Origin: an uncultured Gammaproteobacteria bacterium
Lineage (GTDB): Bacteria > Pseudomonadota > Gammaproteobacteria > JAGOUU01
Length of the DNA stretch: 61,348 bases
Assembly (NCBI GenBank): GCA_964387745.1
Contig: CAYLXL010000006.1
Coordinates: 1 to 61,348, forward strand
Direction: 5' to 3'
The notes beneath the pieces were generated by a model. That model saw only the letters and a list, made by a program, of their open reading frames with translations. It was not told where the DNA came from and made no database searches. Of the stretch, positions 11,275 through 28,793 are shown piece after piece. Made by a program: the position numbers and the translations under genes. Each line of letters begins with the position of its first letter. Positions within the stretch are counted from its first letter, which is position 1.

Positions 11275-11472
11275 ATGTCAAAAAACTCGTTAGAGCGTAC
11301 AGAAGATAGATTTGTAGAAGCTGTGAAAATTAAGAATGATTATATAGAAAGCTTGAAAGATCAGATTCAAATGCTTCAAGACCAAGTTAAATCGCATCAG
11401 GCGCAACACGAAGCGACTCAAAATAGATTAATGTCAATGTTGGAACAGTCTCAGAGATTATTGGAATCATAA
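11275..11472 (+). CDS. Small hypothetical coiled-coil protein (65 aa)
   Basis: ATG preceded by AAGGGA. Heptad-like, Q/E-rich sequence. No recognisable family. Confidence 0.3.
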   Translation: MSKNSLERTEDRFVEAVKIKNDYIESLKDQIQMLQDQVKSHQAQHEATQNRLMSMLEQSQRLLES

Positions 11473-11560: not shown

Positions 11561-11998
11561 TTATCCTCTAGTTCTTGATAAAACTTCTTCAGGTTTAAAA
11601 AAGAATGCTATTTCATTTTTAGCAGTTTCAGCTGCATCTGATCCATGAACTGCGTTTTCACCAACACTGTCAGCAAATAATGCTCTGATAGTTCCAGCAG
11701 CAGCATCTTTAGGATTAGTTGCACCCATAATGTCTCTGTGTTTAGCAACAGCATCAACGCCTTCTAGGCAGGTAACCATAACAGGGCCAGAAGTCATGAA
11801 ATCAACTAGTTCGCCATAGAATGGACGAGCTTTATGTACTTCATAAAAAGCACCAGCTTGTTCTTTAGTTAAATGCATCATTTTAGCAGCTACAATTTTA
11901 AGACCTGATTCTTCGAATTTGCTGTAAATTTTGCCAATAACATTTTTACCAACTGCATCTGGTTTAATGATTGATAATGTTCTTTCTGTATTAGTCAT
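11561..11998 (-). CDS. ndk: Nucleoside diphosphate kinase
   Basis: [12 protein letters not shown], the NAVHGSD active-site His region, 145 aa. Confidence 0.95.
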
Positions 11999-12161: not shown

Positions 12162-12548
12162 TTATTTAAACTTTTTATCTGTGTTGATGGTGAAACTTTC
12201 ACCACAACCACACTCTGCTGTCATGTTAGGGTTATTAAAAACCATTACGCTAGCAATATTTTTTTTAACGTAATCGATTTCGGTACCCGCAACAAACTCG
12301 TAACTTTTATTGTCAACATAGATAGAGATATCTTTACTTTGAAAAATATGATCTTCTTTTGATAATTGCTCCGCTGCTTTAACAAAGTCGACTACATAAG
12401 CATAACCAGAACAACCTGTTTTTTTAATACCTAGTCGTAAGCCAATAACACGATTGATTTCATCGTTTTTATCATTTAATTTTTTTACTTCCGTTTTAAT
12501 ATGCAAAGCTGCATTATCAGTCAAAGTAATTGGTCTATTGTTTGCCAT
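12162..12548 (-). CDS. iscA: Iron-sulfur cluster insertion protein, IscA/HesB family
   Basis: Conserved Cys in KKTGCSGY plus the C-terminal CGCGESF motif. Confidence 0.85.
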   Translation of the reverse strand: MANNRPITLTDNAALHIKTEVKKLNDKNDEINRVIGLRLGIKKTGCSGYAYVVDFVKAAEQLSKEDHIFQSKDISIYVDNKSYEFVAGTEIDYVKKNIASVMVFNNPNMTAECGCGESFTINTDKKFK

Positions 12549-12939
12549 GGATTTGCTTATACTGGATTAAAATATTTTCTAAGGCTTCTTTAAGTAATTT
12601 TATTTGGTTATTCTTAGCAACGGGAATTGTTAAACTTGTCGTTACTTTAGTTAAGCTATAATTAGTAGCTCGGCTTATTTTCATCCCCGGCAACTCTTCA
12701 GACATAAGCCCAAGTGCTGCAATGATATAGCCATCACCATAAACTAAATACTTAACACGCGTAATTATATCACTCTTTATTTCTATATATAATTTTATTT
12801 TTACCCCTAGTTCGATGTCACCTACTTGGGCCATGAATACTGAGTTATTATCAACGTTCAAAGCCCCTGAATTGGGTAAAACGCGTAAATAATTCATGAT
12901 AGGTTCTGGATAAAAACTGCTTTGGTTTTGTTGCTGCAT
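12535..12939 (-). CDS. IscU-like protein lacking all canonical cluster ligands (degenerate scaffold)
   Basis: Aligns by eye along its length with IscU: GDIELGV vs GAPACGD, YGDGYIIAA vs YGCGSAIAS, NNQIKLL vs IHCSIL. Sits in the iscU position between iscS and iscA. The start is uncertain (ATG 12939 or 12897; the ORF opens at GTG 12969). Confidence 0.65.
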   Translation of the reverse strand: MQQQNQSSFYPEPIMNYLRVLPNSGALNVDNNSVFMAQVGDIELGVKIKLYIEIKSDIITRVKYLVYGDGYIIAALGLMSEELPGMKISRATNYSLTKVTTSLTIPVAKNNQIKLLKEALENILIQYKQIHGKQ

Positions 12940-13015
12940 GACTACAATTACTACATTATTACAGTTCACCTGATAGTAAATTAGTCTACAATTATATATG
13001 CTTTAAAGTTATAAT

Positions 13016-14215
13016 TCAAATGCTTTCGGGATCAAGCCCCCTCAGTTTGCTAATAACTTCAACAAGATGCGCGATGGTTATATCTATATCTTGATCTGTC
13101 GTGTATCTACCCAAACTGATTCGAAGAGAACTTTGCGCCTGGCGCTCACTTAAGCCCATGGCTCTTAACACATAAGAGCCCGCAGAGACTGCGCTGCTAC
13201 AGGCAGAACCAGAAGAAACCGCAATTCTATCGAGTGAGGCGATTAGCGCCTCACCATGGATGTCGCTCACGCATAAATTGATATGCCCTACTTTTTTATG
13301 CTGCTGACAGCCATTAAAATTAATTCCAACCAGTGATCTAAGACTAGTAACTAATTTATGCTCCAAGCTTTTTAGCCGAGAAGCTTCTTCTTCCATCTCT
13401 TCAACAGAATATTTAAGTGCATAGGCCAAACCAACAATTTGGTGGGTAGCTAAGGTACCAGAGCGCCAGCCGAATTCATGCCCACCGCCATGCATTTGCG
13501 CCATAAGATTTACTTTCGGATTACGGCGAATATATAGCGCTCCTATCCCCTTGGGTCCATACATTTTATGACCCGAAATTGATAACAAATCTATATTTAA
13601 CTTGTTTAAATCCATTGGAATTTTACCGACACTTTGTGCTGCATCAACATGAAATAGTATCTTAGACTCAGTTGCAAGTTTACCAATATTTTCTATATCT
13701 TGAATAACACCTGTCTCATTATTAACATGCATTAATGATATTAAAATAGTATCCGGCCTAATAACTGCCCTTATTGCCTCAATACTAATCAACCCTTTAT
13801 TATCGGGTTTTAAATAATCAACATCATAACCAACTGACTCTAAATAACGGCAAGTATCCAAAACTGCTTTATGTTCTGTACTACTAGTTATAATATGCTT
13901 GCCTTTATTTTGATAACCGCCTGCAACTCCTAATATTGCTAGATTATCAGACTCAGTTGCACCCGATGTAAAAATAATTTCTTTGCGTGTTACCCCAAGC
14001 AGATCAGCAATAAGAGCTCGTGACTCTTCGACTGCTTCTTTAGCCTGCCAACCATAAAGATGAGTGCTTGAAGCTGGGTTACCAAATATTCCATGTTTAT
14101 CGATGCCGTACATATACGGCAACATCTTTTCTAGTACTCGGCTATCTATGGGTGTGCTTGCGGCATAGTCTAAATAAACAGGTTTAATATTATTACCCAT
14201 AGTCATTGCAGTCAT
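13016..14215 (-). CDS. iscS: Cysteine desulfurase, IscS/NifS type
   Basis: PLP-lysine motif SGHKMYGPKGIGALY. Active-site loop SSGSACSS. Confidence 0.93.
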   Translation of the reverse strand: MTAMTMGNNIKPVYLDYAASTPIDSRVLEKMLPYMYGIDKHGIFGNPASSTHLYGWQAKEAVEESRALIADLLGVTRKEIIFTSGATESDNLAILGVAGGYQNKGKHIITSSTEHKAVLDTCRYLESVGYDVDYLKPDNKGLISIEAIRAVIRPDTILISLMHVNNETGVIQDIENIGKLATESKILFHVDAAQSVGKIPMDLNKLNIDLLSISGHKMYGPKGIGALYIRRNPKVNLMAQMHGGGHEFGWRSGTLATHQIVGLAYALKYSVEEMEEEASRLKSLEHKLVTSLRSLVGINFNGCQQHKKVGHINLCVSDIHGEALIASLDRIAVSSGSACSSAVSAGSYVLRAMGLSERQAQSSLRISLGRYTTDQDIDITIAHLVEVISKLRGLDPESI

Positions 14216-14235: not shown

Positions 14236-15036
14236 CTAATCGTGATTAAGATTTTTTTGATCACATACTCGTTCACAGGCAGCTAATATACCACGCATGA
14301 TGTTCAATTCTTGAGTACAAGGCTGCGCTCGATTGTATAATCTTCGTAAACGTCGCATTAATAATTTTGGTTGTTTTGGATCTAAAAAATTGGTTTTTAG
14401 CATTAATCTTTCCAGATGCTCATAAAACAACTCCATTTCATAAGCATCAGCTAAAACAACATTGTCTCTTTTATTATTAAATTTATTATTAAGTTTATTA
14501 TTTAAGTCTAATTTAAAACTCTCTTGCACACAATCAAGTGCTGCTAAATTCAATTCATAACAGATCAACTGCACAGCACTTGCTATGTTAAGTGAGCTAT
14601 ATTCTTTATTAGTAGGAATTAAGATTTGCGCATGACATATGGATAACTCTTCATTGGTCAAGCCCATACGCTCTTGGCCAAAGATAACCCCAACTTTGCT
14701 ATTGTTCACAGCATAATCATTGATAGCGATGTTTGCAGCTTTTCTTGGATCAATGACTGGACTTGAAAGAGATCGCGACCGTGCGCTCGTTCCTAATAAA
14801 TACTGACAGCCATTTATAGCCTCTTTAAGAGTAGAAACAATAACTATATTGTTTAATATATCATCCGCACCGCAGGCGCGGGCAATAGCATACTCATTTA
14901 TTATATTACTGTCTTGAGAAACCAGATATAATTCGGTCACTCCCATGGTTTTCATGGCACGAGCAGCTGAGCCTATATTGCCAGGTTCAGTAGTATTAAC
15001 TAAGATGATGCGACAATTGTTCAAATAATTATTCAT
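14236..15036 (-). CDS. trmJ: tRNA (cytidine/uridine-2'-O)-methyltransferase, SpoU/TrmH family (TrmJ-like)
   Basis: SpoU motifs NIGSAARAM, FGQERMGL and LNIASAV. Sits upstream of iscS as in enterobacteria. Carries an N/K-rich low-complexity insert (LNNKLNNKFNNK). Confidence 0.8.
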   Translation of the reverse strand: MNNYLNNCRIILVNTTEPGNIGSAARAMKTMGVTELYLVSQDSNIINEYAIARACGADDILNNIVIVSTLKEAINGCQYLLGTSARSRSLSSPVIDPRKAANIAINDYAVNNSKVGVIFGQERMGLTNEELSICHAQILIPTNKEYSSLNIASAVQLICYELNLAALDCVQESFKLDLNNKLNNKFNNKRDNVVLADAYEMELFYEHLERLMLKTNFLDPKQPKLLMRRLRRLYNRAQPCTQELNIMRGILAACERVCDQKNLNHD

Positions 15037-19719: not shown

Positions 19720-20157
19720 TCAAGGACTATCTTTACTAGTTTTAGTATTTAAAGATGCAACTTTAATTAGTAGCGTTTGTGTAGCAATTAATAAATCATT
19801 TAACAATTGTTGATCTATGTCAAAACAACCTTCATATTCAACAAGATTACGTTGATTATGACACTTTGACAATACACGCCAAACTTCTGGCCCCACTCCA
19901 AGAGTATAAGGCAATACTTGAAATAGAATATAGCGATTCCCTGATCGATAGCCTTGCCAGCGTAATGCTGCCAAAGACAATGCATGCGCTGCATTATAAG
20001 CTAGGTCAAAACGACTTTCTGAAGAAAGTAATTTATTTTTTGCATCAAGTAAACGCGCCTCAGCGGAGTGAATCAGTCCCGTAAACTCCAACTGATTGAT
20101 CGGCTCAACTTTCAGTAGACCAGTTTTTACCAAATTGTCCAAGTTTGGCAAGCTCAT
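19720..20157 (-). CDS. HEPN-like helical protein, putative partner of the upstream nucleotidyltransferase
   Basis: All-alpha, 145 aa. C-terminal HNQRNLVEYEG resembles the HEPN RNxxxH region, but Tyr stands where His is expected. Overlaps the MNT gene by 53 nt. Confidence 0.5.
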   Translation of the reverse strand: MSLPNLDNLVKTGLLKVEPINQLEFTGLIHSAEARLLDAKNKLLSSESRFDLAYNAAHALSLAALRWQGYRSGNRYILFQVLPYTLGVGPEVWRVLSKCHNQRNLVEYEGCFDIDQQLLNDLLIATQTLLIKVASLNTKTSKDSP

Positions 20158-20740
20158 CTTCAGTCCCTTTCAAAAAAATTTTGGGTTGCTTAATAATTTG
20201 TGTTACAAAATTATTGTCTGCTTGATATTTCTTGAACCAGTCTATTGGGGAATAAAAAGTTGGATTTATTATGCGCCCTAATTTTACTTCCGCTTTCTCT
20301 AGTAGTATAAATACATCAGCATATGTTAAGTCATCACATATTAACATTAAATCAATATCACTAGTAGCTGTGTCTTCTTTTTTTGCTATGGAACCATAGA
20401 TAAAGGCAAGGTAAATATGTGATGCTATAGGTAGCATAGCCTCTCTTAAAACATCGGCTAATCCAAATGTCTTTAATACAATACTGCGTAATTCTCCAAA
20501 TAGTGGTGAGACGCTATTAGCTTGATAATGTTTCTGGTTACCAATAGCACGAAATGTAATTAACCCTGCACCGGCTAGATTCTCAAGTTCTCGCTGCACA
20601 GCTCCCCTGCCTGAATCAGTCAATCTGATAATTTCATTAGTATGAAAACTACTGTCAGGTTTAGCATATAATAATCCTAATACGCGCTGACGTACCTGGG
20701 GAAAAAGTGCATTTGAGAGACTGTAATATAATGTACTCAT
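20105..20740 (-). CDS. Winged-helix (ArsR-like) + minimal nucleotidyltransferase (MNT) fusion protein
   Basis: wHTH region FHTNEIIRLTDSGRGAVQRELENLAGAGLI. NTase signature YGSIAKKEDTATSDIDLML (GS...DxD). The start is placed at ATG 20740. Confidence 0.75.
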   Translation of the reverse strand: MSTLYYSLSNALFPQVRQRVLGLLYAKPDSSFHTNEIIRLTDSGRGAVQRELENLAGAGLITFRAIGNQKHYQANSVSPLFGELRSIVLKTFGLADVLREAMLPIASHIYLAFIYGSIAKKEDTATSDIDLMLICDDLTYADVFILLEKAEVKLGRIINPTFYSPIDWFKKYQADNNFVTQIIKQPKIFLKGTEDELAKLGQFGKNWSTES

Positions 20741-26799: not shown

Positions 26800-27933
26800 A
26801 TGTATGGTATTAACGATATGAAGAATGTAACTATTATTGGTTGTGGACATGGCGGGCAAGTATTAGCCTACGATTTGACCAAGAAAGGCTGTAAAGTGAC
26901 TCTAGCAGCCCTACCAGACCATCCAGGGTTTGCGACTGAACTAATAAAAAGTAAACAAATAACCTGCACAGGGATGATTGAGGGCACTACCAGTATCCAT
27001 AATGTCACCACTGATTTAGCCATTGCTTTAAAAGATGCAGAAGTTATTTTTATAGTGGTCCCAAGTTTTGCTCAAGAACAAGTTATTTTAGCCTGTATGC
27101 CTCACCTTCAAGATAACCAATGGATTGTCACTCTAGAGGCTAATTTCTCAAGCCTAGTCTACATGGACTTATTAAAGCGCTTAAACTTTAAAAAGCAGGT
27201 TAATTTTGCAGATATATCAACTCTGCCCTACGCCTGCCGTAGCACTAAACCTGGTGAAGTAGTTATTCTTGGTATCAAGAAAAAAATGGGCATTGCAGCT
27301 ATTCCTGCAGATAAAACAAAGTATGTTGCCGAAGAACTAAACAAAGTCTTTCCTTCACAATTGATGGCTTATAATAATGTCTTAGAAATTGGCTTAAACA
27401 GTTTAAGTGGGATTATTCACCCAGCAGTGACCTTATGTAATGCAGGCCGTATTGGCAAAGAAGAATTTTATTTCTATAAAGAAGGCATATCGCCATCTGT
27501 AGGACATCTATTAGAACAATTAGATTTAGAACGTCGCCAAATCGGTAAATTATATGACCTTGATTTGCCACATTGTATGGTAATTGAAGAAGAGTTCTAT
27601 GGGATTAAATATAATAATATTTATGACTTTTTTTATGAAAGTGAAATCCATTCTGGTACTTTCGCACTTTGTCCTAAATCTTTAAAAGAACGTTATATCT
27701 CACAAGATGTGCCGTATGTATTAGTCCCGTGGTATGCTTTAGGTAAAGCAGTTGGTTATGAAGCTCGTGTTACTAAAAGTCTAATAGATATGGCTTCTGC
27801 TTTAAATGGCGCAAATTATTTAGCTGATGGACGTAATTTAGCTCATATGAACTGTCATGATTTGAATAAACGTGAATTGATTACTTATGCTAACTCAGGC
27901 AATCACTATGGTGAGCATAAATGGGCTGGCTAA
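26800..27933 (+). CDS. NAD(P)-dependent opine (octopine/nopaline) dehydrogenase family protein
   Basis: N-terminal Rossmann motif VTIIGCGHGGQVLAYDL. STLPYACRS matches the conserved opine dehydrogenase hinge motif. An alternative start exists at ATG 26818. Confidence 0.7.
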   Translation: MYGINDMKNVTIIGCGHGGQVLAYDLTKKGCKVTLAALPDHPGFATELIKSKQITCTGMIEGTTSIHNVTTDLAIALKDAEVIFIVVPSFAQEQVILACMPHLQDNQWIVTLEANFSSLVYMDLLKRLNFKKQVNFADISTLPYACRSTKPGEVVILGIKKKMGIAAIPADKTKYVAEELNKVFPSQLMAYNNVLEIGLNSLSGIIHPAVTLCNAGRIGKEEFYFYKEGISPSVGHLLEQLDLERRQIGKLYDLDLPHCMVIEEEFYGIKYNNIYDFFYESEIHSGTFALCPKSLKERYISQDVPYVLVPWYALGKAVGYEARVTKSLIDMASALNGANYLADGRNLAHMNCHDLNKRELITYANSGNHYGEHKWAG

Positions 27934-28793
27934 GTAATTACTGGTTATTAACTTCAATATTAAGCGCAATATTTTTTGCTGTCGCTAGTTTTATTATTAC
28001 TATTGGTGCCAAAAAACATTATTCGATTTCGCAAATGTTAGTAGGTTTGTATATCTCAGGCGCTGTAATGTTTGCTTTTTATATTTCTTTACATAATGGT
28101 TTCAGTATAGATAAACAGACTTTTATGTGGGGGATTATTATTGGTATAGGGTCATCTTTAAGTAATGCTTTTTTTACTTATGCACTCAAACTTGGGCCAG
28201 TGAGCCTAACTGGACCACTAGCCAACACTAATGTTATCTTAGTTATTATCATGTCGGTATTTTATTATGGTGAAATACTAAGCTTACCGCAAATATTGGG
28301 AATTTCTTTACTGCTTTTAGGTTGTTTTTTACTGCCGTTTGATCCCCAAGAGAATAAACATGTAAGAAAAAATATGTGGTTTTTAATTATGTTATTAACT
28401 ATATTTTTTATGTTTTTACTAAATGGCGGCTTGAAAATCACCCGTGAATTATTATTAGATAATAGCCTTGTTTTATTTTACTCTTATATTTTTGCAACAG
28501 TGTTATTTTTTAGCAGTATAGTATTTACGAAACTTTATTCCCCTAGGACTTTTAAGTTTAAATATCAAGCTATAAAGATTGGCTTGCTGGCAGGGGTATT
28601 TTCGTTTCTTGGCTTACAGTCTTATGCTATTGCGTTAGAAGGTGGACCAGCTAGTGTAGTTGTTCCTATTTTCTCATCTCGTAATGCAATAGTAGCAGTA
28701 TTATGCATTTGGTATTTTAAAGAGACATTATCAAGATTTCAGAAGATGGCACTTGCTTCTTTATTGTTTGGTTTGTTGTGTGTGAGTTTTTAG
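27921..28793 (+). CDS. DMT superfamily (EamA-like) transporter
   Basis: Ten hydrophobic helices arranged as two 5-TM halves. Overlaps the dehydrogenase gene by 13 nt. Confidence 0.75.
   Translation: MGWLSNYWLLTSILSAIFFAVASFIITIGAKKHYSISQMLVGLYISGAVMFAFYISLHNGFSIDKQTFMWGIIIGIGSSLSNAFFTYALKLGPVSLTGPLANTNVILVIIMSVFYYGEILSLPQILGISLLLLGCFLLPFDPQENKHVRKNMWFLIMLLTIFFMFLLNGGLKITRELLLDNSLVLFYSYIFATVLFFSSIVFTKLYSPRTFKFKYQAIKIGLLAGVFSFLGLQSYAIALEGGPASVVVPIFSSRNAIVAVLCIWYFKETLSRFQKMALASLLFGLLCVSF

Follow-up and report, generated by a model that had tools for sequence, protein, structure and literature searches.

A cysteine-free IscU homologue in a stripped-down gammaproteobacterial isc locus: a possible non-catalytic partner of IscS

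IscU is among the most conserved of proteins, and its three cysteines are treated as defining. The question raised by the isc locus described here, part of a 61,348-nucleotide stretch of DNA from an uncultured Gammaproteobacteria bacterium (hereafter the window; G+C content of the source contig 37%), is what role might be served by an IscU homologue that has lost each of the residues with which IscU holds a cluster. The gene concerned, designated iscU*, and its immediate surroundings are as follows:

12535..12939, minus strand: iscU*, coding for a 134-residue ligand-free IscU/NifU_N homologue with L44, V46, D69, N111 and Q112 at the former ligand positions and no cysteine
13016..14215, minus strand: iscS, coding for a cysteine desulfurase that scores 526-532 bits against IscS profiles and has its catalytic residues intact
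12162..12548, minus strand: iscA, coding for an A-type carrier with all three cysteines kept
14236..15036, minus strand: trmJ, with iscS directly after it and no iscR between
11561..11998, minus strand: ndk, directly downstream of iscA, at the usual place of hscB-hscA-fdx-iscX
12940..13015, minus strand: spacer of 76 nt between iscS and iscU*, with no terminator-like site

The gene order thus bore out the initial annotation, made from the DNA letters, which had placed an open reading frame between iscS and iscA exactly where iscU belongs; the same position is occupied in all related loci, and trmJ is the usual upstream neighbour of an isc operon. The first 14 nt of iscA are shared with the end of iscU*. 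Of the two in-frame starts available to iscU*, the ATG at 12939 is favoured over an upstream GTG at 12969 because conservation among homologues reaches upstream as far as the motif SFYPE, the equivalent of IscU Tyr3; the sole cysteine that this frame could encode lies in the unlikely GTG-start extension. A sigma-70-like site (TTGAAT-17-TATAAT, 13019-12991, minus strand) overlaps the end of iscS and could provide iscU*-iscA-ndk with a promoter of its own, sites of its type being no more frequent in the region than chance would give. As a candidate internal promoter before iscU* it was rejected, consisting of one 10-of-12 match in AT-rich DNA where sites of this kind are not enriched over shuffled sequences.

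No iscR, hscB, hscA, fdx or iscX gene was found within the 61-kb window or within the related loci (flanks of up to 20 kb), and no canonical scaffold gene was found within the window or the 20-kb related loci. The order common to the related contigs is uvrA, MFS-ssb ... (ABC) trmJ-iscS-iscU*-iscA-ndk, beyond which lie an opposite-strand 65-residue open reading frame and then FUSC_2, htpX and SIMPL genes. In the window that frame (11275-11472, plus strand) codes for a coiled-coil product that matched no Pfam family above threshold, and a called 65-residue gene stands at the equivalent place in most related loci (L001, L007, L009/L010, L016 and L017). Wherever a related locus runs on far enough, iscU* and iscA are adjacent, their stop and start codons often overlapping. 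In locus L001 two phosphatase-like genes (~4.2 kb) split iscS from iscU* while leaving iscU* beside iscA, an arrangement that makes iscA, not iscS, the gene more tightly linked to iscU*. The interposed genes (L001, 5892-9842) code for tyrosine-phosphatase-like proteins of 1080 and 225 residues with PTP-SAK/Tc-R-P domains, and their effector-like nature hints at a host-associated lifestyle.

Several other features of the window were recorded. At 5903-7188 (minus strand) a membrane rhodanese gene (Rhodanese plus YgaP-like TM domains) adjoins a gene of the TauE/SafE sulfite-exporter family, the two forming another sulfur-handling pair some 5 kb from the isc locus. At the start of the window (429-5481), Fic-domain proteins are encoded at 429-1589 and 4381-5481 and, between them, an ATPase_2/AAA_14 protein at 1912-3396 and a CAAX-protease-like membrane protein at 3605-4288; this cluster may represent a mobile or defence-type island. 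At 19720-20740 (minus strand), overlapping open reading frames for a 211-residue HTH plus Pol-beta nucleotidyltransferase protein and a 145-residue partner without a Pfam match resemble a toxin-antitoxin pair of the MNT/HEPN type. At 26800-28793 (plus strand) the gene for a protein of the opine (octopine/nopaline) dehydrogenase family overlaps that for an EamA transporter, content that is unusual for a small AT-rich gammaproteobacterial genome.

Comparison with profile libraries confirmed that iscU* is homologous to IscU along its whole length, as had been proposed by eye. The product scored 43.2 bits (E 5e-11) against Pfam NifU_N (PF01592; gathering cut-off 22 bits) over profile positions 6-124 of 127, but only 41.5 bits against the IscU equivalog TIGR01999 (cut-off 192.4) and 20.1 bits against SufU TIGR01994 (cut-off 92.5); neither Pfam nor NCBIfam holds a model specific for it. 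A profile built from the iscU* family found E. coli IscU (PDB 3lvl/2kqk) to be the closest protein of solved structure (E 8e-12), and the two aligned collinearly from end to end with a single one-residue gap. This alignment reproduced every ligand position previously assigned by eye, together with the claim that all the canonical ligands had been replaced: Cys37 has become Leu44, Asp39 Val46, Cys63 Asp69, His105 Asn111 and Cys106 Gln112, so that GAPACGD reads GDIELGV, YGCGSAIA reads YGDGYIIA and IHCSIL reads NNQIKL, and the whole 134-residue product contains no cysteine. The LPPVK motif, which is the recognition site of HscA, reads IPVAK, and across the family only Pro100 and Lys103 of this motif are kept, positions 101 and 102 being variable. 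The neighbouring proteins are intact, again as first described, IscS with SSGSAC(328)SS and IscA with its GCSG and CGCG cysteines. Mutational bias towards AT was rejected as the cause of the cysteine loss, given that IscS and IscA, coded for by the same operon, keep every functional cysteine.

The AlphaFold2 model of iscU*, calculated from a 31-sequence alignment, was highly confident (pLDDT 93.8, pTM 0.86) and showed the IscU order of secondary structure, the fold being one of an N-terminal helix, a three-stranded sheet and a helical bundle. A Foldseek search of the PDB with this model matched only IscU, ISCU2 and SufU chains, the best being ISCU2 and E. coli IscU, the chain in complex with IscS among them (TM 0.81-0.85, target-normalised 0.86-0.92; rmsd 1.2-1.8 Å). 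By sequence and by fold, iscU* is a true member of the NifU_N/IscU superfamily. It nonetheless fails every feature by which an IscU scaffold is defined: the equivalog score, the three cysteines, Asp39 and His105, the LPPVK motif and the hscBA-fdx context.

The close relatives of iscU* form a discrete group. A word-indexed search of 5.8 billion proteins returned five at 51-71% identity, and an exhaustive profile search of 1.84 billion representatives returned four family representatives at E < 1e-30, with a gap from 1e-31 to the next match at 1e-14 that sets this window family (YLVYGD[GS]) apart; among the matches listed, only one GTDB species representative, GCA_964609155.1 (an uncultured Gammaproteobacteria bacterium MAG), carries it. 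Two further members were found beside related IscS genes. The resulting alignment comprised 12 sequences, all full length, with 19 invariant columns that include LPN[SA]G, Y[LQ]VYG[DN][GS][YF] and P106. Certain invariant residues (Lys108, Lys111, Leu59, Leu14 and the LPNSGA motif) are the family's own, being absent from canonical IscU.

At the former ligand positions the family shows little constancy. Ten members have Asp at position 63 and the other two Asn, while position 37 may be L, S, A, R, K or Q, position 39 V, T or L, position 105 N, S, E or K, and position 106 N, Q, S, K or D; four of the five are accordingly variable or hydrophobic. This bears directly on the suggestion, made in the initial annotation, of a scaffold that uses non-cysteine ligands. 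A scaffold or metal-binding protein with carboxylate, amide or Tyr ligands might draw on the Asp/Asn at 63, the near-invariant Tyr65 and the invariant Lys108, all of which lie in the old pocket; the variability at 37, 39, 105 and 106, however, means that no more than one potential ligand is conserved, and even at position 63 Asp gives way to Asn in two members. Such a metal site is disfavoured by this variation and must be regarded as highly improbable.

Selection was assessed at the DNA level in eight syntenic loci, in all of which the iscU* reading frame is intact, as are those of all five genes of the locus wherever present. Between the window and L010, the closest pair, iscU* gave a dN of 0.21, a dS of 1.07 and a dN/dS of about 0.2, a value that indicates purifying selection and that, like all such ratios among these loci, is approximate because synonymous sites are saturated (dS > 1). 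Mean dN was 0.43 for iscU*, 0.35 for iscA, 0.31 for trmJ, 0.27 for iscS and 0.14 for ndk. From these sequence comparisons iscU* is relaxed relative to its neighbours, yet clearly under purifying selection. In the former respect normal IscU shows the opposite pattern. The faster divergence of iscU* than of all four neighbours, and the loss of iscR, hscBA, fdx and iscX from the locus, could be taken to mean that ISC is being dismantled, with iscU* a functionless remnant or a gene kept only for the sake of iscA translation. Against such a decaying relic, which the initial annotation had also considered, stand reading frames without stops or frameshifts in eight loci whose synonymous sites are saturated, the full length of all 12 family members, the low dN/dS, the invariant columns and the confident structural model. 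A pseudogene was rejected on these grounds, and the relic reading, now very unlikely, is largely refuted.

The partner desulfurase is altered in a different manner. The window IscS keeps Cys328, the PLP lysine and His104, together with W45, E49 and R55 of the TusA-binding helix, and ends at about E. coli position 388 with the 386-404 tail missing. The same was found for every IscS encoded beside a ligand-deficient IscU (12/12: window, L001, L005, L007, L010, L012, L014, L016, L017, L019, L020 and L021): all end near E. coli 385-388, without the tail LWEMYKxGVDLxxVxWAHH, one of them bearing an unrelated C-terminal extension. All five canonical IscS controls, 404 residues long, have the tail. 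In E. coli IscS, helix alpha12 (Arg379-Lys391) contacts IscU, and deletion of 376-404 abolishes IscU binding (PMC2854127). The window-clade IscS also differs at E. coli partner-binding positions (R225N, R237F/Y, with R237F in the window, and E347R), and LEP333-335 has become SAG.

The combination of a ligand-deficient IscU, a tail-less IscS and no hscBA or fdx nearby was found at all 12 loci, which represent at least four IscS groups that are mutually no closer (49-52% identity) than they are to canonical IscS; for the window-clade IscS, identity is 49-52% with the IscS proteins from the other degenerate groups and 52-58% with the canonical form. These identities imply that the combination either arose several times or had one very early origin.

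The wider set of such proteins is considerable. Of 156 proteins retrieved, 146 single-domain ones were aligned to E. coli IscU; 42 have all three cysteines and 100 are ligand-deficient, which makes at least 100 ligand-deficient sequence clusters in metagenomes. None of the three cysteines is kept in 53 of those 100 clusters, and Cys37 survives in two. Persisting across all groups are Tyr3, Gly33, Gly38, Tyr/Phe61, Gly62, Pro100 and Lys103. The members outside the window family are 23-30% identical to the window protein, many of them keeping Asp39, His105 or Cys106, and their IscS partners are no closer to the window IscS than canonical IscS is. These proteins, of which the 'YGNPY' group with P0021 is an example, have the same type of locus as the window, trmJ-iscS(short)-iscU*-iscA without hscBA, and like the window protein they have lost Cys37 and kept Tyr3, Gly38, Gly62, Pro100 and Lys103; in a word-indexed search with a 'YGNPY' profile most matches were canonical IscU, and none had an informative name. 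In P0021, P0015 and P0016 both Cys37 and Cys63 are lost, in P0024 Cys37 alone among the cysteines, and all four have genes for a short IscS and for IscA as neighbours, with neither hscBA nor fdx close by; the P0021 and P0015 loci follow trmJ, the P0024 locus an Rrf2/IscR gene. The initial annotation, sound in its factual core, had missed this wider ligand-deficient radiation, as well as the missing IscS tail and the absence of iscR, hscBA, fdx and iscX.

Two members of the wider set merit separate description. In the P0024 locus (L021, 8265-11634) the order is IscR-IscS(395 residues, no tail)-IscU-IscA followed by an unannotated 290-residue gene, and the IscU has Gln and Ala in place of Cys37 and Asp39 with Cys63, His105 and Cys106 kept; the protein also occurs on contigs longer than 1 Mb, which are probably complete genomes of a free-living bacterium, and the lineage is a possible tractable model for early IscU degeneration. 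P0011 (482 residues) and P0017 (472 residues) each consist of three tandem IscU-like domains that lack Cys37 and Asp39 ('ASRGG' instead) and keep the Cys63 equivalent, with His-Cys in some repeats, and their N-terminus resembles an organelle targeting sequence.

The reading best supported by these data, and one that is advanced tentatively at somewhat less than an even chance, is that iscU* is a non-catalytic pseudo-scaffold, a structural or regulatory partner of IscS, of IscA or of both in a stripped-down ISC locus. It would have descended in situ from a housekeeping gammaproteobacterial iscU, losing all Fe-S and persulfide chemistry while being retained as a folded protein, a change that would have accompanied both the reduction of the locus to trmJ-iscS-iscU*-iscA-ndk (iscR, hscBA, fdx and iscX being lost) and the loss of the IscS tail. 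As the likeliest mechanism, the protein may still dock on IscS by the old IscU face, with contacts through its N-terminal Tyr, strands beta2/beta3 and the Lys that remains from the LPPVK loop. Bound there, it would serve in a structural or regulatory capacity, stabilising or gating the desulfurase, and might in addition position the co-translated carrier IscA. The former metal pocket looks like one that has been filled, by Asp/Asn63, Tyr65, Lys108 and hydrophobic residues at 37, 39 and 66, which would lock the protein in a metal-free structured state. At position 108, where the family has its invariant Lys and which lies close to Cys106, 369 of 429 prokaryotic IscUs carry Ile, Leu or Val (PMC4440780). 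Acceptance of persulfide and holding of a cluster are excluded by the absence of cysteine; of the proposals in the initial annotation, that of a regulator or adaptor of IscS is the best supported, as an inferred role, whereas its particular form as a persulfide shuttle is excluded.

Docking on IscS is suggested by the distribution of conserved residues. In E. coli, IscU contacts IscS through Tyr3, Tyr11, Gly38, Val40, Lys42, 59-64 and Lys103 (Shi et al. 2010, PMC2854127), and the equivalent positions are the most conserved part of the iscU* family, with a mean entropy of 0.45 bit against 1.41 elsewhere (permutation p ~1.5e-4). Tyr3 is invariant and position 103 is Lys in 9 of 12 members; K103E in E. 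coli IscU abolishes IscS binding (PMC2854127). The HscA-specific Pro101-Val102 pair, by way of contrast, has not been kept, in agreement with the lack of hscBA. Against docking, the residue differs at four of the contact positions (Y11L, V40K, K59L and C63D), several such positions are Gly or lie in beta-strands and could be conserved for folding alone, and the loss of IscS 386-404, including half of alpha12, may mean that the old interface has been weakened rather than kept. This tail loss, taken with the tighter linkage of iscU* to iscA, constitutes the chief evidence against the favoured reading, beside which stand two main alternatives.

One of these places assembly on IscA: IscS, IscU* and IscA would form a minimal machine in which the cluster is built on IscA and IscU* bridges or orients the carrier at the active-site loop of IscS, with no HscBA. 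The adjacency of iscU* and iscA everywhere, even where iscS is displaced, is in its favour, as are the three cysteines of IscA and the lack of hscBA, fdx or a canonical scaffold in the window and the 20-kb related loci; a radical-SAM RlmN near the L019 locus further implies that these lineages still need Fe-S clusters. This alternative is nevertheless judged rather unlikely, since iscU-iscA adjacency is plain ancestral gene order, contact between IscU* and IscA is purely putative and SUF elsewhere in the genome may well do the job. A bolder extension, in which tail-less IscS, ligand-free IscU* and IscA would make up a self-sufficient variant of ISC, assembling clusters on the A-type carrier or at the IscS-IscA interface with the IscU fold as structural adaptor and without HscBA or ferredoxin, and in which the at least 100 Cys37-less clusters would represent a widespread 'ISC-lite', is to be regarded as improbable. 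The other alternative dispenses with IscS, supposing a neofunctionalised IscU-fold protein that has acquired a new partner or role and remains in the locus merely by inheritance. The family's own invariant residues would suit such a change, as would the missing tail that once held IscU and a net charge that moves from about -7 in E. coli IscU to between +1 and +7 in the family. The charge shift (family pI ~8.7, against 5.8 for canonical IscU) was, however, rejected as proof of a new partner because the basic shift extends over the whole AT-rich window proteome, IscS included; moreover, the most conserved surface is still the one that formerly faced IscS, and gene order has been preserved across saturated divergence. 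A new role apart from IscS is on balance unlikely, and a pseudo-scaffold acting on IscS, IscA or both is retained as the preferred reading.

A full-text search of the literature for a cysteine-less or degenerate IscU found no description of one, a preprint on a Legionellales symbiont citing IscU and IscS in passing. A phylogenomic survey of prokaryotic IscU adopted the three cysteines as an inclusion criterion and discarded homologues without them (PMC4440780), so that proteins like iscU* would have stayed hidden; should the 'ISC-lite' proposal be true, it would constitute an unrecognised system filtered out of IscU surveys by that same requirement. Database labels carry a related risk: P0021 (MBS0357979.1) is annotated by NCBI as 'iron-sulfur cluster assembly scaffold protein', a label that is almost certainly wrong for the iscU* family and would lead astray any metabolic reconstruction for these uncultured Gammaproteobacteria. 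With its ligands gone, and still folded, constrained and in its operon, iscU* amounts to a natural separation-of-function allele, one that isolates the tasks of IscU besides cluster holding, be they docking, gating, stabilising the desulfurase or handover to IscA. The recurrent loss of the IscS tail with that of HscBA and Fdx suggests, in turn, a repeatable evolutionary route by which ISC is dismantled or re-purposed.

Of the known systems, housekeeping IscU (E. coli, PDB 3LVL/2L4X; TIGR01999) is among the closest to iscU*. The two have a common fold (TM 0.81, rmsd 1.8 Å to 3lvl_A), the gene of each stands downstream of trmJ, flanked by iscS and iscA, and iscU* retains Tyr3, Gly33, Gly38, Lys42, Tyr61-Gly62, Pro100 and Lys103. 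They differ in that identity is about 26%, the five ligands are replaced, the centre of LPPVK is lost, position 108 is Lys in place of Ile, Leu or Val, the protein is basic where E. coli IscU is acidic, and the locus, unlike an ISC operon, has no hscBA, fdx, iscR or iscX. SufU of Bacillus and Mycobacterium, a zinc-dependent sulfurtransferase, offers a precedent for an IscU fold serving as a non-scaffold accessory partner of a cysteine desulfurase. SufU, however, keeps its Cys/Asp zinc ligands and a persulfide-accepting cysteine, of which iscU* has none, and given in addition a score of 20 bits (cut-off 92.5) and a TM of ~0.65, iscU* is not SufU. Non-catalytic partners of desulfurases are also familiar in ISD11/LYRM4, IscX and CyaY, the folds of which are unrelated to IscU; the likeness of iscU* to these proteins, and to pseudoenzymes, would lie in its proposed action alone, that of a cysteine-free protein tuning or stabilising IscS/NFS1.
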